From NCBI RefSeq assembly GCF_003991155.1, contig NZ_CP031297.1: a stretch of 64,000 bases of DNA; one strand, given 5' to 3'. Under the pieces are notes generated by a model. The model was not told the origin of the DNA and searched no databases. It was given only the letters and a program-made list of their open reading frames with translations. The stretch is from Escherichia coli. Lineage in GTDB: Bacteria > Pseudomonadota > Gammaproteobacteria > Enterobacterales > Enterobacteriaceae. Below, piece after piece: positions 6,951 through 42,711 of the stretch (the stretch's first letter is position 1; each line of letters opens with the position of its first letter). The translations under genes were made by a program, and so were the position numbers.

Positions 6951-7437
6951 AGTTTGTGAATATTGAACAATCGAGGTGGGATAGCGCTTGTTCGTAGCTA
7001 CCTTTGTTGTTCGTCTTACGCAGTGCCACCAGCTCAACAATCAATTGGCTTAAAGCCAGTGATTGAGGCTCCCAGACGCGCTTGCATTTGTCAGCCATGT
7101 TGGCATTTACGTCTGTAATGACGTAGAGGAAATCAGGGACGTCTTTCAAGGTCCCCAGGCCTTTTGCCATATCAACAGCCTCAGGGTTTTGATAGCTTCG
7201 AGTGGCGCTCAGGTCATCGTGGGAAATATAGCTGGCAGATGTCTCAGCGAAACCTAACACCATGCCTTTTCCTGCGCTTTTTGCAATGGCCGAGCCGATA
7301 GCTAGAGTTGGCATGATGGCCTGACCTATTTGGCGGGTAGATGCAGTTGCCAAGCCTGAGGCGATGTTCTTCCCGGCATCTTCGGCAGTGGCAGAGCTGG
7401 TTGTGAGCATCGCAGTTAAAATGATTTTTCCAAACAT
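6949..7437 (-). CDS. Secreted Ala/Gly-rich protein (signal peptide MFGKIILTAMLTTSSATA)
   Basis: ATG at 7437 with GAGGA SD; in-frame part of ORF 6949..7497. Confidence 0.7.
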   Translation of the reverse strand: MFGKIILTAMLTTSSATAEDAGKNIASGLATASTRQIGQAIMPTLAIGSAIAKSAGKGMVLGFAETSASYISHDDLSATRSYQNPEAVDMAKGLGTLKDVPDFLYVITDVNANMADKCKRVWEPQSLALSQLIVELVALRKTNNKGSYEQALSHLDCSIFTN

Positions 7438-7451
7438 ACTTAATTCCTCTA

Positions 7452-9644
7452 TCAATCCATAAAGTCCGACTTTTTGAAGGGCATAGTGCCTTTGCAATCG
7501 GGATACGCTGTGCAGCCCCAGAACTTAGAGGCTCGTTTCTTGCCAGGGGCTTTTCCTTTCCTGAGACGCATCGGGCTACCGCAATCTGGGCAGTCTGGAC
7601 AATCCTCCGCCGCGATACGTTTCTCGGGTTTCCCTCGGTTGTCTGGGAACGTCTTCTTGCAAGCCTCGTTCTGGCAGCCCCAGAAAAAACCGTTCTTCCC
7701 TTTGATCCGGTGCATCTCTCCACCGCAGTTGAAGCATTCGTGTGAAGGAGGCTTCGCGCCCTCGAAGGCTTTAGCCATCGCGCCACCTTCTTTGGTCAGA
7801 ACCGGTGCGGCCACTTTGAGCTGCTCAACCATTTGGCAGATCCAGGTGGAAATCTGCTTCATGAAGACAGACATGTTCCCGGAGCCGGAGGCAACTTTCT
7901 CAAGCTCCTGCTCCCAAGCCGCAGTCATGCCGGGTGATTTGATGGCTGGTGGAAGCACTGCTATAAGCGCATGAGCCTTATCAGTTGCAAGCAGTACCTT
8001 TTTCTGACGCTTGAAGTAGCCTTTATCAACAGCGCCCTGGATGATGCTTGCGCGTGTTGCTGGAGTGCCTAAACCGGCTGTGTCTTTGAGGATTTGTTTG
8101 AACTTCTCCTCAGTCACGAACCGGGCAATGTTCTCCATCGCGGCAAGCAATGTGGCTTCGGTGAAGTGCGGTGCTGGCCGCGTCATTTTGTTTGCCAGCT
8201 CGGCCCCATTCAGCAAGGCAGGTTCGCCCTGGCTAACCCTGGGGAGCTTCTCTTGTTCAACCGGCGCGTCGGTGTCTTCCCCCTCGTCCTTGGGACTGCT
8301 TTCACTATCAGAAGCAAACAAAACCTTCCAGCCTTGTTTGGTAGGTGTCTTACCAGCGGACGCAAAGAGGTGACGCCCACACTGCACCTCGATGGAGGTT
8401 TTGGTGAACTCGAACTCGCTGTAGAACTGCGCGATGTAGAAACGACGGATGGCGTCGTAAAGATTGAACTCGATCTCAGACATGGCACTGATGTCTGTTC
8501 TGGCCGGTGTTGGAATGATCGCGTGGTGCGCGGTCACTTTGGCGTCATTGAATACCCTGGCCTTGCGATGAGGATCTGCGCCAGCCACCAGCCCAGAGAC
8601 GTTCTGATCGGACAAAATGAGCGCCTGGAGAATGTCCGGAATGTCTTCCTTTTGGCTCTCGGGTAGATAACGACTGTCAGTACGAGGGTAGGTGGTCGCT
8701 TTGTGCGTCTCGTACAGAGCTTGAGCTGCATCCAGTACCTGCTGAGCTGTGTATCCCCATCGTTTGCTCGCGTATTGTTGCAGCGACGTTAGATCGAAGG
8801 GGAGGGGGGCTGACTCTTTACCTGGTTTGGTTTCTGCTTTGCTGATAACAGCATTGGCACCATTGACCTGGGAGGCTACCTGCTCGGCATAGGCCTTATT
8901 GACGCACCGGCCTTGCTCGTCACTGCACTCTTCTGGTGGTATCCATTGGGCGGCAAACTGTCCATTCTGTACGGACACGTTCACACCCAGAGTCCAGTAT
9001 GGTGAGGGGGTGAAACCGGCGATCTCTCGGTCCCGTTGACAAACAAGAGCGACGGTTGGGGTGATAACCCTGCCAACGTGAAGAGTGTGGTTGAAGCCGA
9101 CATCTCGGGCCAGCACTGTGTAGAGGCGGCTCACGTTCATGCCTACCAACCAGTCAGCGCGTTGCCGTGCCAATGCGGCGTAGTAGAGTGAGACCGTATC
9201 CTTGCCATCCTTTACGTTGTTCAGCGCTTTCTTGATGCTTGACTCATCGAGAGCCGTCAAACAAACTCGGCGAATAGGGCCAGAGTAGCGGAATCGATCC
9301 AGAAGCGAACGGGCGATAGCCTCACCTTCTCGGTCGTAGTCCGTTGAGATGTAGATGGTGCTCGCCTTTTTGACCAGTCCCTCAACAATTTTGTACTGTT
9401 TGAACGCACTCTTGCGAACGTTGTACCGCCATGACTCTGGTGCAATAGGGAGGGTCTCCAGTGACCATGACTTGTAGCGTTCGTCATAATCGTCTGGCAT
9501 ATACAATTCCAGCAGGTGGCCGAACGCCCACGTAATAACGCGGTTTCCTCCATCATGGAGAAATCCATCACCTCGTTGGGAGGCCTTCATTACGCCAGCC
9601 AAATCTTTTGCCTGAGAAGGCTTCTCGCAGATATAAAGGTCCAT
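7452..9644 (-). CDS. topB: DNA topoisomerase III with C-terminal zinc-ribbon repeats
   Basis: 730 aa; Toprim N-terminus (ISTDYDREGEAIA), type IA topoisomerase core, C-terminal CxxC clusters; GAGGAG SD. Confidence 0.95.
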   Translation of the reverse strand: MDLYICEKPSQAKDLAGVMKASQRGDGFLHDGGNRVITWAFGHLLELYMPDDYDERYKSWSLETLPIAPESWRYNVRKSAFKQYKIVEGLVKKASTIYISTDYDREGEAIARSLLDRFRYSGPIRRVCLTALDESSIKKALNNVKDGKDTVSLYYAALARQRADWLVGMNVSRLYTVLARDVGFNHTLHVGRVITPTVALVCQRDREIAGFTPSPYWTLGVNVSVQNGQFAAQWIPPEECSDEQGRCVNKAYAEQVASQVNGANAVISKAETKPGKESAPLPFDLTSLQQYASKRWGYTAQQVLDAAQALYETHKATTYPRTDSRYLPESQKEDIPDILQALILSDQNVSGLVAGADPHRKARVFNDAKVTAHHAIIPTPARTDISAMSEIEFNLYDAIRRFYIAQFYSEFEFTKTSIEVQCGRHLFASAGKTPTKQGWKVLFASDSESSPKDEGEDTDAPVEQEKLPRVSQGEPALLNGAELANKMTRPAPHFTEATLLAAMENIARFVTEEKFKQILKDTAGLGTPATRASIIQGAVDKGYFKRQKKVLLATDKAHALIAVLPPAIKSPGMTAAWEQELEKVASGSGNMSVFMKQISTWICQMVEQLKVAAPVLTKEGGAMAKAFEGAKPPSHECFNCGGEMHRIKGKNGFFWGCQNEACKKTFPDNRGKPEKRIAAEDCPDCPDCGSPMRLRKGKAPGKKRASKFWGCTAYPDCKGTMPFKKSDFMD

Positions 9645-9877
9645 TAAGCAGCTCCTCTCATCTTTGATTCCAGATTCGCCAGCTCAGTCCAGCTTTGAGC
9701 CAGACCTTTGACTTCGGGGTAGTCTCTGGAGAGGTTTTCGAGGACTCCAGAAATGACATAGGCCGCTTCGCTGGAATTACCCCTCGAACCGGCCTCCTGG
9801 AGCATGATTAATAAAGCGTCGAAGAGCTCAGCCTTACGGCCTAGCTCTGTCTGGTTTCTTATTTCAGAGCTTTGCAT
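9644..9877 (-). CDS. Small hypothetical protein, translationally coupled to topB (TAATG overlap)
   Basis: ORF 77 aa ending 1 nt into topB start. Confidence 0.5.
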   Translation of the reverse strand: MQSSEIRNQTELGRKAELFDALLIMLQEAGSRGNSSEAAYVISGVLENLSRDYPEVKGLAQSWTELANLESKMRGAA

Positions 9878-10476
9878 GGGTTCACCACTGAATAGGGACG
9901 CACGGACTCGCGCACAATGCGGCGATCTGCGTCAGTTACAGCCTGACTGGTGCAAAAGTGCGTCCAGGCATTCAGATAATCTTTATAGGTGTGGGTAGGT
10001 GGTATGCAGCCGGTTACAACGTCCTTGGGGATGTTTGTGGTTCCCTCGGCTTCCACAAAGCGCCAATCGTGCTCGTCCATACCTTTGCCACCATCGCAAT
10101 AGCGTTCCCAGCGTGACAACTCGTACAGCGAGTAGCCTTTGCCTTTATTCATGGACTTGAAGGTATTGATGGCTTCGTTGACATCCCCGTGCTGTTTGAT
10201 CCCTGCTGGAGTTTTATCTGAACCAGCGGAGTCATCTTTGACCTTGTTCATCGTTGCGCTGACATTACCGTCGCCCAGCACATGGATATAACCAGGTTGA
10301 CGTAATGCAGCACCACCGCGCCCCATGTTGTCCCATGCCATCGACAGTTCCCGGCTAACTCGGGCAGGTTTGTCATTTTCGGCAGGGGCAGTCTGGGGCT
10401 GAGGCTTTTGCTCGGGGGCGTTAGAGGCACACCCGGCCAGAATTGCCACTCCCAGAATTGCTATCAGTTGTCTCAT
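9859..10476 (-). CDS. Lipoprotein (MRQLIAILGVAILAGCASN lipobox)
   Basis: ATG at 10476 (residue 55 of ORF 9859..10638); lipobox LAGC. Confidence 0.75.
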   Translation of the reverse strand: MRQLIAILGVAILAGCASNAPEQKPQPQTAPAENDKPARVSRELSMAWDNMGRGGAALRQPGYIHVLGDGNVSATMNKVKDDSAGSDKTPAGIKQHGDVNEAINTFKSMNKGKGYSLYELSRWERYCDGGKGMDEHDWRFVEAEGTTNIPKDVVTGCIPPTHTYKDYLNAWTHFCTSQAVTDADRRIVRESVRPYSVVNPCKALK

Positions 10477-10599
10477 CGTGTCGTTCCTCATAAAAAATTG
10501 TCGATGAGCCCATTCTAAAAGGGGGGGGATGGAAAGCTGGTTTCTCAAACTGCCCAAATTGGACAGATAGGCGTGTGTGCGATCTAAAGGTGTTTTGAG

Positions 10600-10648
10600 A
10601 GCATGTAGCGACGAGAAATACGATAGGAATATGGTCAACCTACATGCT
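10600..10648. promoter_or_regulatory. 9-bp inverted repeat AGCATGTAG / CTACATGCT spanning the relaxase start codon
   Basis: Arms at 10600-10608 and 10640-10648 in the divergent intergenic region. Confidence 0.3.
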
Positions 10649-13616
10649 GAAAGCCCTTAACAAGTTATTTGGTGGGCGAAGTGGAGTGATCGAGACCGCG
10701 CCGAGCGTCAGAGTGTTGCCGCTTAAAGACGTGGAAGATGAAGAAATCCCTCGATACCCACCTTTTGCCAAGGGCCTGCCAGTGGCCCCACTAGACAAGA
10801 TACTGGCAACCCAAGCTGAACTGATTGAGAAAGTGCGGAACTCTCTCGGTTTCACTGTGGACGACTTCAACCGGCTTGTTTTGCCGGTGATCCAGCGGTA
10901 TGCCGCGTTTGTTCACCTGTTGCCAGCTTCCGAATCACACCACCACCGTGGCGCTGGTGGTCTGTTCCGACATGGGCTTGAAGTGGCCTTCTGGGCAGCT
11001 CAGGCATCTGAGTCAGTTATCTTTTCCATCGAGGGGACGCCTCGTGAACGCCGTGACAATGAGCCGCGTTGGAGACTGGCGAGCTGTTTCTCCGGGCTGC
11101 TGCATGATGTGGGTAAACCGCTCTCGGATGTGTCCATTACGGACAAAGACGGGTCAATCACATGGAACCCGTATTCGGAGTCACTTCATGACTGGGCACA
11201 CCGTCACGAAATCGACCGTTACTTTATCCGGTGGCGCGACAAGCGACACAAAAGACATGAGCAATTCTCGCTGCTGGCGGTGGATCGAATTATTCCGGCT
11301 GAGACTCGGGAGTTTCTGTCCAAGTCTGGCCCGTCCATCATGGAAGCGATGCTGGAAGCTATCTCAGGAACCAGCGTCAATCAGCCTGTGACCAAGCTGA
11401 TGCTTCGCGCTGACCAAGAGAGCGTCTCACGGGACCTTCGCCAGAGTCGTCTCGATGTGGACGAGTTCTCCTATGGTGTGCCTGTCGAGCGGTACGTGTT
11501 CGATGCCATCCGCCGCCTGGTTAAAACCGGAAAATGGAAGGTCAATGAGCCAGGCGCGAAAGTCTGGCACCTCAACCAAGGTGTATTCATTGCCTGGAAA
11601 CAGCTTGGGGACCTTTATGACTTGATCAGCCACGACAAGATCCCCGGTATTCCACGAGACCCTGACACACTGGCCGACATTCTCATCGAACGTGGTTTTG
11701 CTGTACCAAACACGGTGCAGGAGAAGGGTGAACGTGCGTACTACCGCTACTGGGAAGTTTTGCCTGAGATGCTCCAGGAGGCGGCGGGATCGGTGAAGAT
11801 CTTGATGCTCCGACTCGAATCAAACGACCTGGTGTTTACGACTGAGCCTCCTGCGGCTGTTGCTGCGGAAGTTGTTGGTGATGTTGAGGACGCTGAGATT
11901 GAGTTCGTTGATCCTGAGGAAGTCGATGACGACCAAGAGGAAGATGTGTCAGCTCTGAACGATGACATGTTGGCCGCAGAGCAGGAAGCAGAGAAAGCTC
12001 TAGCTGGTCTTGGCTTTGGTGATGCGATGGAGATGCTGAAAAGCACCTCAGATGCTGTCGAGGAGAAACCAGAGCAAAAAGATGCTGGATCAACGGAATC
12101 ATCTAAGCCTGACGCTGGCAAGAAGGGTAAGCCGCAGAGCAAACCGGGCAAAGCAAAACCGAAGAGTGATACAGAGAAACAACCCCACAAACCAGAGGCA
12201 AAAGAGGATTTGTCCCCTCAGGACATTGCCAAAAACGCACCACCTTTGGCAAACGACAATCCGTTACAAGCACTCAAGGATGTTGGGGGTGGACTGGGGG
12301 ACATCGACTTTCCGTTTGACGCATTCAGCGCATCGGCAGAGACAGCCAGCACTGACGCAACAAACTCAGAAATCCCAGATGTGGCAATGCCCGGAAAGCA
12401 AGAGAAGCAGCCAAAACAGGACTTCGTTCCACAAGAACAAAACTCCCTGCAGGGCGATGACTTTCCAATGTTCGGTAGTTCTGATGAACCGCCATCATGG
12501 GCGATTGAGCCGCTCCCTATGCTGACTGACGCACCAGAACAAACAACACCAGCGCCAGCAATGCCACCTACGGACAAACCTAATCTGCATGAGAAAGACG
12601 CAAAGACCTTACTCGTTGAGATGTTAGCCGGGTACGGAGAAGCATCGGCGTTGCTTGAACAAGCGATCATGCCTGTTTTGGAAGGTAAAACGACGCTGGG
12701 CGAAGTCCTATGCCTGATGAAGGGTCAAGCCGTCATTTTGTACCCGGATGGCGCTCGGTCGCTGGGTGCGCCGTCAGAGGTTCTCTCGAAGCTGTCCCAC
12801 GCCAACGCGATTGTTCCAGACCCGATTATGCCAGGTCGCAAAGTTCGTGATTTCAGCGGAGTGAAGGCAATTGTACTGGCGGAGCAGCTTTCAGATGCAG
12901 TCGTAGCGGCCATTAAGGATGCCGAGGCGTCAATGGGGGGATACCAGGATGCCTTTGAGCTCGTCTCTCCCCCTGGCTTGGATGCAAGCAAGAATAAGTC
13001 TGCACCGAAACAACAAAGCCGAAAAAAGGCGCAGCAGCAGAAGCCTGAGGTTAACGCCGGTAAACCCTCGCCTGAACAAAAGGCGAAAGGTAAGGACTCC
13101 CAGCCACAGCAGAAGGAGAAGAAGGTCGATGTTACTTCTCCGGTTGAAGAGCCGCAGCGCCAGCCGGTCCAAGAAAAACAGAACGTGGCTCGCCTTCCTA
13201 AGCGGGAGGTTCAACCAGTGGCTCCTGAGCCCAAAGTTGAGCGTGAGAAGGAATTGGGACACGTCGAGGTGCGAGAAAGGGAAGAGCCAGAGGTTAGGGA
13301 GTTTGAGCCGCCTAAGGCGAAAACAAACCCGAAAGACATCAACGCGGAAGATTTCTTGCCGTCTGGTGTTACGCCTCAGAAAGCACTCCAGATGCTCAAG
13401 GACATGATCCAAAAACGCTCGGGCAGATGGCTCGTGACACCTGTCCTGGAAGAGGATGGCTGCTTAGTAACCAGTGACAAAGCCTTCGACATGATTGCCG
13501 GTGAAAACATCGGCATCAGCAAACACATCCTCTGCGGGATGCTGAGCCGGGCACAGAGACGGCCTTTGCTCAAGAAACGTCAGGGAAAACTGTATTTAGA
13601 GGTAAATGAAACATGA
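10644..13616 (+). CDS. traI: Conjugative relaxase with HD-type metal-binding motif (MOBH-like), long acidic/Lys-Pro-rich low-complexity middle region
   Basis: 990 aa; SESHHHRGAGGLFRHGLEVAFWAAQ motif; immediately upstream of and overlapping the coupling-protein gene. Confidence 0.85.
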   Translation: MLKALNKLFGGRSGVIETAPSVRVLPLKDVEDEEIPRYPPFAKGLPVAPLDKILATQAELIEKVRNSLGFTVDDFNRLVLPVIQRYAAFVHLLPASESHHHRGAGGLFRHGLEVAFWAAQASESVIFSIEGTPRERRDNEPRWRLASCFSGLLHDVGKPLSDVSITDKDGSITWNPYSESLHDWAHRHEIDRYFIRWRDKRHKRHEQFSLLAVDRIIPAETREFLSKSGPSIMEAMLEAISGTSVNQPVTKLMLRADQESVSRDLRQSRLDVDEFSYGVPVERYVFDAIRRLVKTGKWKVNEPGAKVWHLNQGVFIAWKQLGDLYDLISHDKIPGIPRDPDTLADILIERGFAVPNTVQEKGERAYYRYWEVLPEMLQEAAGSVKILMLRLESNDLVFTTEPPAAVAAEVVGDVEDAEIEFVDPEEVDDDQEEDVSALNDDMLAAEQEAEKALAGLGFGDAMEMLKSTSDAVEEKPEQKDAGSTESSKPDAGKKGKPQSKPGKAKPKSDTEKQPHKPEAKEDLSPQDIAKNAPPLANDNPLQALKDVGGGLGDIDFPFDAFSASAETASTDATNSEIPDVAMPGKQEKQPKQDFVPQEQNSLQGDDFPMFGSSDEPPSWAIEPLPMLTDAPEQTTPAPAMPPTDKPNLHEKDAKTLLVEMLAGYGEASALLEQAIMPVLEGKTTLGEVLCLMKGQAVILYPDGARSLGAPSEVLSKLSHANAIVPDPIMPGRKVRDFSGVKAIVLAEQLSDAVVAAIKDAEASMGGYQDAFELVSPPGLDASKNKSAPKQQSRKKAQQQKPEVNAGKPSPEQKAKGKDSQPQQKEKKVDVTSPVEEPQRQPVQEKQNVARLPKREVQPVAPEPKVEREKELGHVEVREREEPEVREFEPPKAKTNPKDINAEDFLPSGVTPQKALQMLKDMIQKRSGRWLVTPVLEEDGCLVTSDKAFDMIAGENIGISKHILCGMLSRAQRRPLLKKRQGKLYLEVNET

Positions 13617-15478
13617 CAATGAGTTATGACCCGCTCGCCTACGAGATGCCGTGGCGGCCCAACTATGAAAAAAATGCTGTAGCAGGCTGGCTTGCCGCCT
13701 CCGGCGCGGCTTTGGCCGTAGAGCAAGTCAGCACGATGCCTCCGGAGCCCTTCTATTGGATGACGGGGATCTGTGGCGTGATGGCGATGGCTCGTTTGCC
13801 AAAGGCTATCAAACTTCACCTGCTCCAAAAGCATTTGAAGGGGCGTGATCTGGAGTTTATTTCTATTGCGGAGCTCCAAAAGTACATCAAGGACACGCCG
13901 GACGATATGTGGCTTGGTAGTGGGTTCCTGTGGGAAAACCGCCATGCCCAGCGCGTGTTTGAGATCCTGAAACGCGACTGGACTTCCATCGTAGGGAGAG
14001 AGTCCACGGTCAAAAAGGTTGTCCGGAAGATACAGGGTAAGAAAAAGGAGCTGCCAATCGGCCAGCCCTGGATTCACGGGGTAGAACCCAAAGAAGAGAA
14101 GCTGATGCAGCCACTCAAGCACACTGAGGGGCATTCGCTGATCGTTGGGACCACCGGCTCGGGCAAGACCCGTATGTTCGACATCCTGATTTCACAGGCC
14201 ATTCTGCGTGGGGAAGCCGTGATCATCATAGACCCGAAAGGGGATAAGGAGATGCGGGACAATGCACGACGTGCCTGTGAAGCTATGGGGCAGCCGGAAA
14301 GATTCGTCTCATTTCATCCAGCATTCCCGGAAGAGTCGGTGCGTATCGACCCTCTGCGTAACTTCACCCGCGTGACTGAAATTGCAAGTCGTTTGGCAGC
14401 GTTGATCCCGTCCGAAGCAGGGGCCGACCCGTTCAAATCATTTGGATGGCAGGCACTGAACAACATCGCTCAGGGCTTGGTCATCACTCATGATCGTCCC
14501 AACCTGACAAAGCTCCGCCGATTCCTTGAAGGTGGCGCTGCTGGCTTGGTCATCAAGGCCGTTCAGGCTTACTCAGAGCGAGTTATGCCCGACTGGGAGG
14601 CAGAAGCAGCGGCTTATTTGGAGAAAGTCAAAAACGGTTCGCGTGAGAAGATCGCTTTCGCGTTGATGAAGTTCTACTACGACATCATCCAACCTGAGCA
14701 CCCAAACTCTGATCTGGAAGGCTTGCTGTCGATGTTCCAGCACGACCAAACCCACTTCTCCAAGATGGTGGCGAACCTCCTGCCGATCATGAATATGCTG
14801 ACGTCCGGGGAGCTAGGCCCTCTGCTGTCTCCAGACTCATCTGATCTGAGCGACGAACGCCAGATCACTGATTCCGCAAAAATCATCAACAACGCTCAAG
14901 TTGCTTATCTGGGGCTCGACTCCCTGACCGACAACATGGTTGGTAGTGCTATGGGGTCCATCTTCCTGTCAGACCTGACAGCGGTTGCCGGTGACAGATA
15001 CAACTACGGCGTCAACAACAGACCCGTAAATATCTTTGTTGATGAGGCTGCTGAGGTGATCAACGACCCGTTCATCCAGCTCCTGAACAAAGGTCGCGGT
15101 GCGAAACTTCGTCTTTTCGTTGCAACTCAGACTTTTGCTGACTTCGCAGCTCGACTGGGTAGCAAAGACAAAGCGCTCCAAGTGTTGGGGAACATCAACA
15201 ACACGTTTGCTCTGCGTATCGTCGATGGTGAAACACAGGAGTATATCGCAGATAACTTGCCGAAGACCCGGCTCAAGTACGTCATGCGGACTCAAGGCCA
15301 GAACTCGGATGGCAAGGAGCCCATTATGCACGGAGGCAACCAAGGCGAGCGTTTGATGGAGGAGGAAGCTGATCTGTTCCCAGCCCAGTTATTGGGAATG
15401 CTTCCGAACCTGGAATACATAGCCAAAATTTCAGGCGGAACAATCGTAAAAGGCCGTCTGCCCATATTGACCCAGTAA
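13613..15478 (+). CDS. traD: Type IV coupling protein (TraD/VirD4 family)
   Basis: 621 aa; N-terminal TM segments; Walker A GTTGSGKT; Walker B IFVDEAAE; ATGA overlap with relaxase. Confidence 0.9.
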   Translation: MTMSYDPLAYEMPWRPNYEKNAVAGWLAASGAALAVEQVSTMPPEPFYWMTGICGVMAMARLPKAIKLHLLQKHLKGRDLEFISIAELQKYIKDTPDDMWLGSGFLWENRHAQRVFEILKRDWTSIVGRESTVKKVVRKIQGKKKELPIGQPWIHGVEPKEEKLMQPLKHTEGHSLIVGTTGSGKTRMFDILISQAILRGEAVIIIDPKGDKEMRDNARRACEAMGQPERFVSFHPAFPEESVRIDPLRNFTRVTEIASRLAALIPSEAGADPFKSFGWQALNNIAQGLVITHDRPNLTKLRRFLEGGAAGLVIKAVQAYSERVMPDWEAEAAAYLEKVKNGSREKIAFALMKFYYDIIQPEHPNSDLEGLLSMFQHDQTHFSKMVANLLPIMNMLTSGELGPLLSPDSSDLSDERQITDSAKIINNAQVAYLGLDSLTDNMVGSAMGSIFLSDLTAVAGDRYNYGVNNRPVNIFVDEAAEVINDPFIQLLNKGRGAKLRLFVATQTFADFAARLGSKDKALQVLGNINNTFALRIVDGETQEYIADNLPKTRLKYVMRTQGQNSDGKEPIMHGGNQGERLMEEEADLFPAQLLGMLPNLEYIAKISGGTIVKGRLPILTQ

Positions 15479-40419: not shown

Positions 40420-40497
40420 TAGAGATACTCCTAAATTTGAGGTACAGATAAACGCACTGGAAAGGATAAATGCGGTCAATCTGTAACCTGACCTCTC

Positions 40498-40530
40498 GAA
40501 GTGCCCAAAATGGACAGTTACAGCGTTTTC
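40498..40530 (+). promoter_or_regulatory. Motif B (GTGCCC-AAAAT-GGAC ... TTACAGCG), copy 6
   Basis: Divergent intergenic region before the array. Confidence 0.4.
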
Positions 40531-40565
40531 TGTTTAGCAAAGGTGAGCTATATTTGAATCATCTT

Positions 40566-40616
40566 AGTCGCTCTGCGGCTATAGGTGAGATAGCTGGTCT
40601 CCGAAAACAAACAGCA
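40566..40616 (+). promoter_or_regulatory. Conserved leader element C, copy 1 (hairpin GAGA-TAGCTGG-TCTC + CGAAAACAAACAGCA)
   Basis: Seven related copies, each before a gene block. Confidence 0.45.
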
Positions 40617-40713
40617 TCTAGTCTTATGCCGTATGGCATTACTTAACCCCAAGCCGGGGGCTTCTCCCGGTTTTCGGGTGTTGCCCCTGTTTTTTTTACA
40701 TAGGAGCAACACC

Positions 40714-41034
40714 ATGCACATCATCACTTTCATTGTAGTTCTGCTTGCATCTCTGGGCGCACTGTACGTAGGCGCGAAGGCATTTGCTTTTTCCTTCATC
40801 GTTCTCGCTAAAGTGTTCCAGCGTATCGGTTTGTTCCTTTGGAACAAATTCGCAGTTCCTGCAATGCGGTCTGTACAGGCCGTCATCAAAGAACGTGCTG
40901 CCAAGGCTGAACAAGCCAAAGCAGTCGTTGAACCTGAGGTAACTCAAGTTCAAGAAGTCGCTAAACAAGAACCTGACTGGGATTATCTCGAAATCCCGAC
41001 TTACCTTCGTAAGGGCAAGGAACTTGTTTGGTAA
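40714..41034 (+). CDS. Small membrane protein carrying an FtsZ C-terminal-peptide-like tail (EPDWDYLEIPTYLRK)
   Basis: ATG at 40714 with AGGAG SD; N-terminal hydrophobic 35 aa; C-terminus matches the FtsZ conserved C-terminal peptide (E. coli ...EPDYLDIPAFLRKQAD, from memory). Confidence 0.75.
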   Translation: MHIITFIVVLLASLGALYVGAKAFAFSFIVLAKVFQRIGLFLWNKFAVPAMRSVQAVIKERAAKAEQAKAVVEPEVTQVQEVAKQEPDWDYLEIPTYLRKGKELVW

Positions 41035-41073
41035 TAACTGTCGCTGAGTAATCTTCGACACTTTCAAACCCAT

Positions 41074-41113
41074 CGGGGCAACCATACCCCGACGGGGATG
41101 TTGCCCCTTTTTG
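41074..41113 (+). terminator. Terminator-like hairpin (GGGGCAAC ... GTTGCCCC + TTTTT)
   Basis: GC stem + T-run after gene 40714..41034. Confidence 0.45.
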
Positions 41114-41128
41114 CTTAGGAGCAACATC

Positions 41129-41221
41129 ATGGAAATCGCTATCATCGCTTTGTGTATCCCTGCTGGTTGGGCAATCTCTCGTCCTTTCGTGAGAATCGCT
41201 GAATCGTTCGGTTACTGCTGA
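41129..41221 (+). CDS. Tiny hydrophobic peptide (30 aa)
   Basis: Same TAGGAGCAACAYCATG context as the preceding gene; MEIAIIALCIPAGWAISRPFVRIAESFGYC. Confidence 0.35.
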   Translation: MEIAIIALCIPAGWAISRPFVRIAESFGYC

Positions 41222-41337: not shown

Positions 41338-41523
41338 ATGCAACAGAATCTTCATGTTTACGACGATCACGCAGGCATCATCTATCTGGCTGATGGACGC
41401 GAGGTGAAATTTGATCCGAAACTGTATTCCAGCTCCTACCAGGCGCACAGTGAAGCAGTGAAGTGGGCCAAAGAAACCGGGGTCATTGGTCAAAACGACG
41501 ATGTGGTGATGTTCGTCCATTGA
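41338..41523 (+). CDS. Small hypothetical protein (61 aa)
   Basis: ATG at 41338 with AGGGGGA SD. Confidence 0.5.
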   Translation: MQQNLHVYDDHAGIIYLADGREVKFDPKLYSSSYQAHSEAVKWAKETGVIGQNDDVVMFVH

Positions 41524-41660: not shown

Positions 41661-41742
41661 AATTAACGTTAATTTACTAGCCCAACCGGGCGCATCCGCC
41701 CGGTTCGGGACGTGGTGCGCCTGTCACAATAGGAGCGCACCT

Positions 41743-42711
41743 ATGTCTCAATACTCTCAATTCTCAGTAAGCAAGGTTTTCGGTATGCCCAGCATTCCGG
41801 AGAAGGTAACGGCCATCGGCTACGCTGACGGTTCAAACCCTTTCATCCCTGCCACTGATACCAACTACGTTTTCCGCAAAGAGTTTCTGCGAGAGGTCTT
41901 GGCCTATCTCAAAGAGCCTGGCGGTGACGCATTGTTCGTAACCGGCCCTACCGGGTCTGGCAAAACCTCAGGTATCACCGAGATCGCTGGTCGTCTCAAC
42001 TGGCCTGTTCAGCAAATCACTGCCCACGGGCGGATGGAGCTGACAGATCTGATTGGACATCACGCTCTGGTCGCGGAAAAGCCTGGTCAACCACCTGTCA
42101 TGAAGTTCATGTATGGACCTCTGGCAGTCGCTATGCGTGAAGGTCATCTGCTCCTCATCAACGAGGTGGATTTGGCCGACCCTGCCGAGCTGGCTGGTCT
42201 CAACGATGTCCTTGAAGGGCGTCCCCTTGTGATCGCTCAGAATGGCGGGGAAATCATCAAGCCGCACCCGATGTTTCGTGTGGTCGTTACTGGTAACTCT
42301 ACGGGGTCCGGTGATGCTTCTGGTTTGTACCAGGGGGTGATGATGCAGAACCTCGCAGCTATGGATCGCTATCGTTTCACCAAAGTAGGGTATGCGGATG
42401 AGGAAGCTGAACTCAGCATTCTTGGCCGTGCTACTCCGAAACTTCCGGAAAATGTGCGGAAGGGAATGGTTCGGATTGCTAATCAGGTCCGCAAACTGTT
42501 TCTTGGCGAAAACGGTGAAGATGGTCAGATCAGCGTCACCATGTCCACTCGGACGTTGGTGCGTTGGGCGAAACTGTCTCTAGCGTTCCGTGGTGCCCCA
42601 AATGCTCTTGAATACGCCTTGGATCAAGCTCTGCTTATCCGTGCGGCCAAAGAGGAGCGTGAAGCCATCCTGCGTGTTGCGAAGGATGTGTTCGGGGACC
42701 AATGGCGCTAA
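41743..42711 (+). CDS. AAA+ ATPase, MoxR/CobS-like
   Basis: Walker A GPTGSGKTS; Walker B LLLINEVD; 322 aa. Confidence 0.85.
   Translation: MSQYSQFSVSKVFGMPSIPEKVTAIGYADGSNPFIPATDTNYVFRKEFLREVLAYLKEPGGDALFVTGPTGSGKTSGITEIAGRLNWPVQQITAHGRMELTDLIGHHALVAEKPGQPPVMKFMYGPLAVAMREGHLLLINEVDLADPAELAGLNDVLEGRPLVIAQNGGEIIKPHPMFRVVVTGNSTGSGDASGLYQGVMMQNLAAMDRYRFTKVGYADEEAELSILGRATPKLPENVRKGMVRIANQVRKLFLGENGEDGQISVTMSTRTLVRWAKLSLAFRGAPNALEYALDQALLIRAAKEEREAILRVAKDVFGDQWR

Follow-up and report, generated by a model that had tools for sequence, protein, structure and literature searches.

An FtsZ-tail-like peptide at the C-terminus of Vcrx087, a protein of IncC and IncA conjugative plasmids, and its possible role as a membrane-tethered decoy

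The window analysed here is a stretch of 64,000 nucleotides of Escherichia coli DNA (contig NZ_CP031297.1 of RefSeq assembly GCF_003991155.1), and the subject of this report is one of its genes, vcrx087, the product of which ends in a peptide resembling the C-terminal docking peptide of the division protein FtsZ. The open reading frame (ORF) lies at 40714..41034 on the plus strand, encodes 106 amino acids (aa) plus a stop codon, and ends ...VAKQEPDWDYLEIPTYLRKGKELVW; the product described in an earlier note on the same DNA is reproduced exactly from the ORF list and the sequence. A Shine-Dalgarno sequence, AGGAG, is located at 40702-40706, 7 nt 5' of the ATG. In the RefSeq annotation of an identical plasmid the ORF is WP_000547566.1, a "hypothetical protein", and it corresponds to vcrx087 of pVCR94, with which the published hde operon begins; this identification could be made because the neighbouring genes were named from solved structures and papers. 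The earlier note gave the gene no name; it is already called vcrx087 in published work, where it is explicitly labelled "of unknown function" (PMC8373056). The coding sequence and the three parts of its product are as follows.

40714..41034, plus strand: vcrx087 coding sequence (ORF list, RefSeq, tblastn matches in 824 plasmid records, pN/pS, published transcription in PMC7498323)
40714..40851, plus strand: predicted hydrophobic N-terminal membrane anchor, residues 1-46, MHIITFIVVLLASLGALYVGAKAFAFSFIVLAKVFQRIGLFLWNKF (hydropathy, charge table, conserved positions)
40852..40974, plus strand: poorly conserved linker, residues 47-87, rich in Ala, Glu, Lys, Gln, Val and Pro (highest entropy)
40975..41031, plus strand: FtsZ-tail-like peptide, residues 88-106, DWDYLEIPTYLRKGKELVW (tail profile, BLASTP, conservation, pattern search)

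The product of vcrx087 and its FtsZ-like tail

Using word-indexed and exhaustive HMMER searches, we found that the Vcrx087 family is small, with 16 close clusters, 14 representatives at the 50% level and identity down to ~30%. The intact members are alike in three parts, namely an uncharged hydrophobic N-terminus, a linker of variable length in which the large insertions and deletions between homologs are concentrated, and a conserved tail; this is the architecture of hydrophobic N-terminus, flexible linker and FtsZ-like C-terminal peptide that the earlier note had described. No family match to the product was found in Pfam, NCBIfam or PADLOC, and PHROGs gave a single weak match to a family of unknown function (E=0.027). 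The overall ratio of non-synonymous to synonymous polymorphism (pN/pS) of vcrx087 is 0.13-0.44 compared to the IncA and Edwardsiella variants. Between IncC and IncA, the pN/pS of the tail is 0.05, a value that rests on the small counts of five synonymous changes and one non-synonymous change. Two other readings of the locus were rejected, a longer 133-aa reading from 40633, since all homologs begin at the Met equivalent to the 40714 start, and an antisense 149-aa ORF at 40696-41145 on the minus strand, since homologs conserve no frame but that of 106 aa, start included.

Kyte-Doolittle windows of at least 1.6 cover residues 1-42 of Vcrx087. Among the seven family members tabulated, residues 1-21 are without charge in all, acidic residues are absent before about position 55, and a cluster of K/R stands directly after the hydrophobic stretch; the conserved positions of the anchor include F6, G15, G20 and F28. 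Because the N-terminus is uncharged and the basic residues come just after the hydrophobic stretch, a cytoplasmic C-terminus is favoured under the positive-inside rule. From its sequence, Vcrx087 would be a small inner-membrane protein with the N-terminus outside and the C-terminus in the cytoplasm, an orientation like that of ZipA.

The earlier note compared the tail to the C-terminus of E. coli FtsZ; we repeated the comparison with the real sequence of E. coli K-12 FtsZ, which ends ...TAKEPDYLDIPAFLRKQAD (also written ...KEPDYLDIPAFLRKQAD), and the tail of Vcrx087, in a slightly different cut, is QEPDWDYLEIPTYLRKGKELVW. In a BLASTP comparison of the pair, residues 85-100 of Vcrx087 (QEPDWDYLEIPTYLRK) align with FtsZ residues 367-380 only (KEPD--YLDIPAFLRK), with 10 of 16 positions identical and E=3e-4. 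To search without bias, we built a tail profile of 22 columns from 16 family tails, with no FtsZ included, and compared it to 177,635 distinct sequences from the PDB. The top match is Pseudomonas aeruginosa FtsZ (PQDDLDYLDIPAFLRR, E=0.0021), followed by the FtsZ proteins of E. coli and Klebsiella pneumoniae (E=0.025 each), and all three matches are placed at the extreme FtsZ C-termini; with Bacillus subtilis FtsZ (E=1.1), FtsZ accounts for four of the seven matches. The proposed match of the tail to the FtsZ C-terminal peptide thus holds both in a profile search and in alignment with the real sequence. When the 24-aa tail was used as a single phmmer query against the PDB, FtsZ was not retrieved and the top match was NDUFB7 (E ~2); unlike the single tail sequence, the family profile had enough power to detect FtsZ. 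A recent capture of the 3' end of a host ftsZ gene was considered and is unsupported, since the BLASTP alignment is limited to 16 residues and contains a gap of two.

To represent the part of the FtsZ tail that is constant, we used a pattern in the style of the literature, [DE][ILV]P.[FY][LIM][RK]. In the 427,000 six-frame residues of DNA examined, this pattern matches only Vcrx087-family tails and FtsZ itself, and among the family it is found in the protein of the window, in other IncC-type, IncA, Vibrio and Aeromonas members, and in several metagenomic ones. The tail is the most conserved region of the protein, with an entropy of 1.02 bits versus 1.79 for the linker and 1.55 for the N-terminus (23 members, down to ~30% identity). 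Conservation of the tail next to a linker that varies in sequence and length is expected of a tethered ligand. The motif of the family tail can be written as D-W, x2, Y/F/L, D/E, x, P, T/A/S, Y/F, L/I, R, K/R/Q/N, G, x2, L-V-W. Homologs lacking the tail, which the earlier note named as grounds for regarding the match as chance, were looked for: intact homologs down to ~30% identity retain the motif core (acidic, x, P, x, aromatic, L/I, R, polar/basic, G), and the terminal L-V-W is present in nearly all of them.

FtsZ and Vcrx087 share a core consisting of D/E, I, P, x, F/Y, L, R, K together with the preceding E-P-D and Y-L, and in both proteins the motif is located at the extreme C-terminus, behind a variable and poorly conserved linker. 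Binding of the FtsZ tail to ZipA is dominated by I374, F377 and L378 (PMC8669495), the equivalents of which in Vcrx087 are I, Y and L; P375, R379 and K380 are matched as well, the last by K100. Compared to the FtsZ tail, that of Vcrx087 contains a W-D insertion and has the six residues GKELVW in place of QAD. We regard the equivalence of the two motifs and the conservation of the tail as established. Outside the motif the proteins differ: FtsZ consists of the tubulin (PF00091) GTPase and FtsZ_C domains, neither of which was found in Vcrx087 by a Pfam scan, and Vcrx087 has a membrane anchor instead. Because it contains no GTPase domain, Vcrx087 falls outside the FtsZ family.

A similar extension past the motif is seen in Thermotoga maritima FtsZ (PDB 1W5F chain A, residues 338-353), which ends EGDIPAIYRYGLEGLL, the Vcrx087 counterpart being EIPTYLRKGKELVW (40984-41031). 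Both sequences continue for eleven residues after the proline and then end in R, x, G, x, E, x and two hydrophobic residues. It should be noted that T. maritima FtsZ was not significant in the tail-profile search, and that this resemblance of the endings is an observation only; it places the extension within the natural range of FtsZ tails. The T. maritima peptide is reportedly the one crystallised with FtsA (PDB 4A2A), and FtsA might on that account be the target.

Distribution, operon and expression of vcrx087

Among the 840 plasmid records that match the 4-kb surroundings of vcrx087, 733 do so at an identity of at least 99%. The matching plasmids that were examined are typed IncC, MOBH and MPF_F, and the hosts are Klebsiella, Escherichia, Salmonella, Citrobacter, Providencia, Vibrio, Aeromonas, Proteus and Shewanella; the "mobile element" of the earlier note is a conjugative plasmid of the IncC type. 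By tblastn, vcrx087 was detected in 824 plasmid records, of which 822 are conjugative, and in the phage collection no genuine phage was found to carry it, the single match being a 127.7-kb record labelled Salmonella Typhimurium. vcrx087 is a core, strictly conserved backbone gene of IncC/IncA conjugative plasmids.

Upstream of the locus lie a large gene, identified as traN by Pfam domains of homologous loci, a 286-aa lipoprotein gene on the minus strand, known as sfx or vcrx085 (PMC11493245), and the divergent 213-aa gene acaB, the product of which matches PDB 6N8B (E=1e-135). Two features separate acaB from vcrx087.

40420..40650, no single strand: intergenic region with the divergent promoters P_acaB (minus strand) and P_vcrx087 (plus strand) (PMC8373056)
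40651..40713, plus strand: 5' leader with two hairpins (RNA fold, covariation)

The acaB-vcrx087 pair is listed among divergent AcaCD-dependent promoters, and P_vcrx087 is constitutive and also activated by AcaCD/SgaCD (PMC8373056). A promoter scan of the intergenic region gave no convincing sigma-70 site, and the placement of the promoters rests on the published data. By reverse transcription PCR (RT-PCR), vcrx087, vcrx089 and bet share one transcript, probably starting from P_vcrx087 (PMC7498323). The hde (host-defence-evasion) operon includes vcrx089-090, which act against type I restriction and are required in the recipient, not in the donor, and ssb-bet-exo, which repair CRISPR-induced breaks (PMC7498323).

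For the comparison of neighbours we used the contigs of sufficient length, which are seven independent ones with eight loci (L003/L004, which encode the same protein, L005, L008, L010, L011, L013 and L018). In all seven contigs, the 087-like gene is the first one after a divergent acaB-like gene ~290 bp away and precedes genes of anti-restriction and recombination; it is followed by genes for an AAA_5/CbbQ_C ATPase, then RecT/YqaJ, DUF3150 and CobT/VWA proteins. Membership of vcrx087 in the hde operon is thus supported by synteny with the vcrx089 ATPase gene and the genes downstream of it in these contigs, and by the co-transcription seen in the published RT-PCR (PMC7498323); both the gene context and the transcription of vcrx087 are established.

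Locus L013 (GCA_031963415.1, a 2.96-Mb contig, 7001-14297) is a chromosomal relative resembling an integrative and conjugative element. Its 087-like protein has the tail ...DWVELDEPTFLRKGKKIACR, without the terminal L-V-W, and the gene is followed by genes for an AAA ATPase, DUF3150, CobT/VWA, ArdA and two Antirestrict-domain proteins, while bet/exo are absent; the anti-defence cargo that accompanies the 087-like gene is thus not always the same.

AAA_5/CbbQ_C ATPases like Vcrx089 (41743-42711), with DUF3150 and VWA neighbours, are encoded in 1640 plasmid records (plasmid loci L014 and L015 are examples). These plasmids include ones of Acinetobacter, Yersinia and Pseudomonas, and many are typed non-conjugative. 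About half of the 1640 records contain no detectable vcrx087, compared to 824 plasmids with Vcrx087, and no 087-like gene adjoins the related ATPase modules of Microbulbifer and Proteus plasmids.

In the 5' leader of vcrx087, hairpin 1 is GC-rich (40651-40673), and in hairpin 2 (40677-40713) GGGTGTTGCCCCT pairs with the Shine-Dalgarno AGGAG and the nucleotides from there to the start codon. The predicted fold has an energy of -33.4 kcal/mol (z=-4.8); the leader is kept 5' of the 087-like genes in eight divergent loci, with compensatory changes in 6 of the 17 pairs, and it matches no Rfam family. The two-hairpin leader is found three times on the plus strand of the window, at 40651-40713 (vcrx087), 41069-41128 (a mini-ORF) and 41684-41749 (vcrx089), each copy consisting of a GC-rich hairpin followed by a hairpin that pairs GGGTGTTGCCCC(T) with AGGAGCAACAYC. 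In the vcrx089 copy the pairing is maintained through compensatory changes, GGTGCGCC with GGAGCGCACC. The fold z-scores of the three copies range from -4.7 to -5.5, and PMC7498323 mentions the vcrx089 copy alone. Masking of the Shine-Dalgarno sequence by a conserved leader is consistent with a product that does harm when made in excess.

A possible decoy at the inner membrane

The FtsZ tail is the shared dock of FtsA, ZipA, MinC, SlmA, ClpX and ZapD (PMC4835091). We consider it probable that the Vcrx087 tail binds some receptor of the FtsZ tail. A stronger and more tentative proposal, the simplest and best of the readings considered although we put it forward with somewhat more doubt than conviction, is that Vcrx087, tethered to the membrane, competes for the receptors of the FtsZ tail and interferes with host division; the protein is a strong candidate for such a role. 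From the above results we infer binding, competition and benefit as follows. A flexible linker of ~40 residues would hold a short linear motif, copying the FtsZ C-terminal peptide, at the inner membrane; confined there, the copy would sit beside FtsA and ZipA and compete with FtsZ filaments for both, and the competition would weaken or delay the anchoring of the Z ring. FtsA and ZipA are the likeliest targets because they are found at the same membrane surface. The expected outcome would be a mild, transient division delay in new transconjugants or in donors active in transfer, and such a delay is the likely purpose because vcrx087 heads an establishment operon that acts on host entry and because it is induced by AcaCD. 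The dose of Vcrx087 may be kept low at the level of translation by the hairpin that sequesters its Shine-Dalgarno sequence.

The layout of Vcrx087, as read from sequence, is comparable to that of ZipA: in both, one hydrophobic anchor at the N-terminus is joined through a flexible linker to the functional module at the C-terminus, and both would act where the FtsZ tail meets its receptors. ZipA, however, carries a receptor domain (PF04354, in all ZipA homologs), whereas Vcrx087 carries a ligand-like peptide with no folded domain, and the two have no sequence similarity. Small modulators of Z-ring assembly, encoded by mobile elements for the most part or induced by stress, include Kil of lambda, KilR of Rac, DicB of Qin, Gp0.4 of T7, SulA, CbtA and MciZ of B. 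subtilis. To our knowledge, the known division inhibitors act on the globular domain or the polymerisation of FtsZ, or via MinC, and none has been presented as a mimic of the FtsZ tail. Vcrx087 is not a sequence member of the Kil, DicB, SulA, CbtA or Gp0.4 families, given the database results above. Some of the known division modulators depend on ZipA or MinC (PMC11762379, PMC5624674).

Engineered FtsZ tails are laboratory-made, and Vcrx087 would be a natural, membrane-concentrated version of these. Du, Park and Lutkenhaus reportedly worked in 2015 with isolated and oligomerised FtsZ tails, the potency toward ZipA and SlmA being tied to valency or local concentration. Full-text literature searches returned no paper that links vcrx087, IncC or any conjugative plasmid to an FtsZ-tail mimic, nor any on a natural membrane-tethered copy of the FtsZ tail, in agreement with the earlier note, which knew of no described protein with such an architecture. 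Thus, modulation of division by mobile elements and engineered competitors of the FtsZ tail are known, and a natural membrane-tethered copy is undescribed in the literature searched. Among establishment and anti-defence genes (the hde genes from vcrx089 to exo, and genes of the ArdA, ArdB, PsiB and SSB type), Vcrx087 shares the operon and the promoter of the former; the known genes of this kind are directed at restriction, CRISPR damage or the SOS response, and none of them at the divisome. Vcrx087 of IncC, IncA and related MOBH elements might then be the first natural mimic of the FtsZ docking peptide, a decoy against FtsA and ZipA that imposes a brief pause of division to the advantage of an incoming or transferring plasmid, a possibility that is still somewhat doubtful.

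Several points weigh against the proposed decoy. The promoter is constitutive, which argues against a strong block of division, and we know of no report of filamentation in cells bearing IncC plasmids; any inhibition must accordingly be slight or closely confined. In addition, FtsZ polymers are multivalent, and a monomeric decoy reportedly competes poorly with them. The transposon sequencing (TnSeq) screen that defined hde flagged vcrx089-093 and not vcrx087 (PMC7498323). In some distant family members, the position equivalent to I374 is E, Q or T, and the family adds G, x2 and L-V-W past the E. coli tail, as well as a conserved upstream W; these additions may mean that the tail has some other partner. 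A pattern of small residues at about residues 25-27 would allow a topology like that of a signal peptide, with the tail then in the periplasm. Finally, when ZipA(185-328) was fused through a 30-residue Gly-Ser linker to Vcrx087 75-106 and modelled with AlphaFold2, the tail stayed undocked, at a predicted local distance difference test (pLDDT) score of ~30, and a scrambled tail behaved alike, so that these models, made without a positive control, do not discriminate.

Some of these points bear on the alternatives to a decoy. The resemblance to FtsZ may be convergent or incidental, with the tail serving an unrelated partner (the Vcrx089 AAA+ ATPase, Vcrx090, or a periplasmic or envelope component) and having no role at the divisome; we consider this rather unlikely. 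It would account for the conserved W and the G, x2, L-V-W that the E. coli FtsZ tail does not have, for the failure of the single-sequence search to retrieve FtsZ, for the undocked tail in the ZipA model, where the scrambled control gave the same result and a positive control was lacking, and for the ATPase gene that follows the 087-like gene in every contig of sufficient length; moreover, the cytoplasmic location of the C-terminus is itself a prediction. On the other hand, a profile built without FtsZ ranks FtsZ tails first among all PDB sequences searched, the T. maritima ending parallels the family extension, and the distribution of charges favours a tail in the cytoplasm. The idea of a partnership with the ATPase is weakened by the 1640 plasmids with Vcrx089-like ATPases versus 824 with Vcrx087, and by the Microbulbifer and Proteus modules, suggesting that Vcrx087 is not an obligate partner of the Vcrx089 ATPase.

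If the tail does engage a receptor of FtsZ, it may still serve as something other than a decoy. It could be a localisation tag, by which binding to FtsA or ZipA carries Vcrx087 and its membrane contacts to the division site or the new poles with division unblocked, the possible cargo including components of the type IV secretion system (T4SS), other plasmid-associated components, or the 30-aa microprotein described below. The evidence from the motif is identical for tag and decoy and the results fit both equally; constitutive transcription is easier to square with a harmless passenger, and the conserved F6, G15, G20 and F28 suggest contacts within the membrane. However, Vcrx087 has no domain besides these parts, a cargo for it is not known, and we consider a tag unlikely. 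Less likely still is a tail directed at another receptor of the FtsZ tail, namely ClpX, MinC, SlmA or ZapD. All of these dock on one peptide, and K380 of FtsZ matters for all four (PMC4835091); this lysine corresponds to K100 of Vcrx087, and family members have K, R, Q or N at the position. The operon headed by vcrx087 counters type I restriction through vcrx089-090. Type I restriction is alleviated in a ClpXP-dependent manner, through the link between ClpXP and HsdR. One could speculate that ClpXP is sequestered or recruited at the membrane by Vcrx087, which would connect restriction alleviation to the anti-restriction role of the operon. Conversely, the GKELVW after the K380 equivalent differs from the QAD of FtsZ, and TnSeq gave no role for vcrx087 in the evasion of restriction or CRISPR.

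IncC plasmids rank among the chief vehicles of carbapenemase and multidrug resistance genes in Enterobacterales and Vibrio. If the tail of Vcrx087 does engage FtsA, ZipA or another receptor of the FtsZ tail, no earlier natural example would exist of a short linear motif being mimicked to address the bacterial divisome. Conjugative elements would then manage host division during establishment or transfer, and the tail would provide a natural peptide scaffold for the FtsZ-tail pocket, already an antibiotic target. Should Vcrx087 be the decoy proposed here, the divisome would be controlled by a new mechanism and the establishment functions would gain a new class.

Neighbouring reading frames and insertions

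Between vcrx087 and vcrx088, at 41129-41221 on the plus strand, there is an unannotated hydrophobic mini-ORF of 30 aa, MEIAIIALCIPAGWAISRPFVRIAESFGYC, preceded by a Shine-Dalgarno-sequestering leader like that of vcrx087. Counterparts are present in divergent elements: MEIAIIATCIPPAWFISRPLVKIAEWFGYR in L018, MTLVILGLCVLTGLFISRPVVKIANHFGLY in L010 and ...VSGWYVSKPFRAIARSFGY in L008. The mini-ORF is probably a real membrane microprotein that was missed by annotation.

The next gene, vcrx088 (41338-41523, plus strand), encodes a 61-aa product (MQQNLHVYDDHAGIIYLADGRE...WAKETGVIGQNDDVVMFVH) that matches no family in PHROGs or PADLOC and is conserved in L008, L010, L011, L018 and L003.

In several other top-matching plasmids, an ISKpn8/IS3 insertion splits the 4-kb query region in two. 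In the K. pneumoniae plasmid p1605752AC2 (L001, 1057-3473), ISEc23, an element of the IS66 family, is located a few kb upstream, between the traU gene and sfx.

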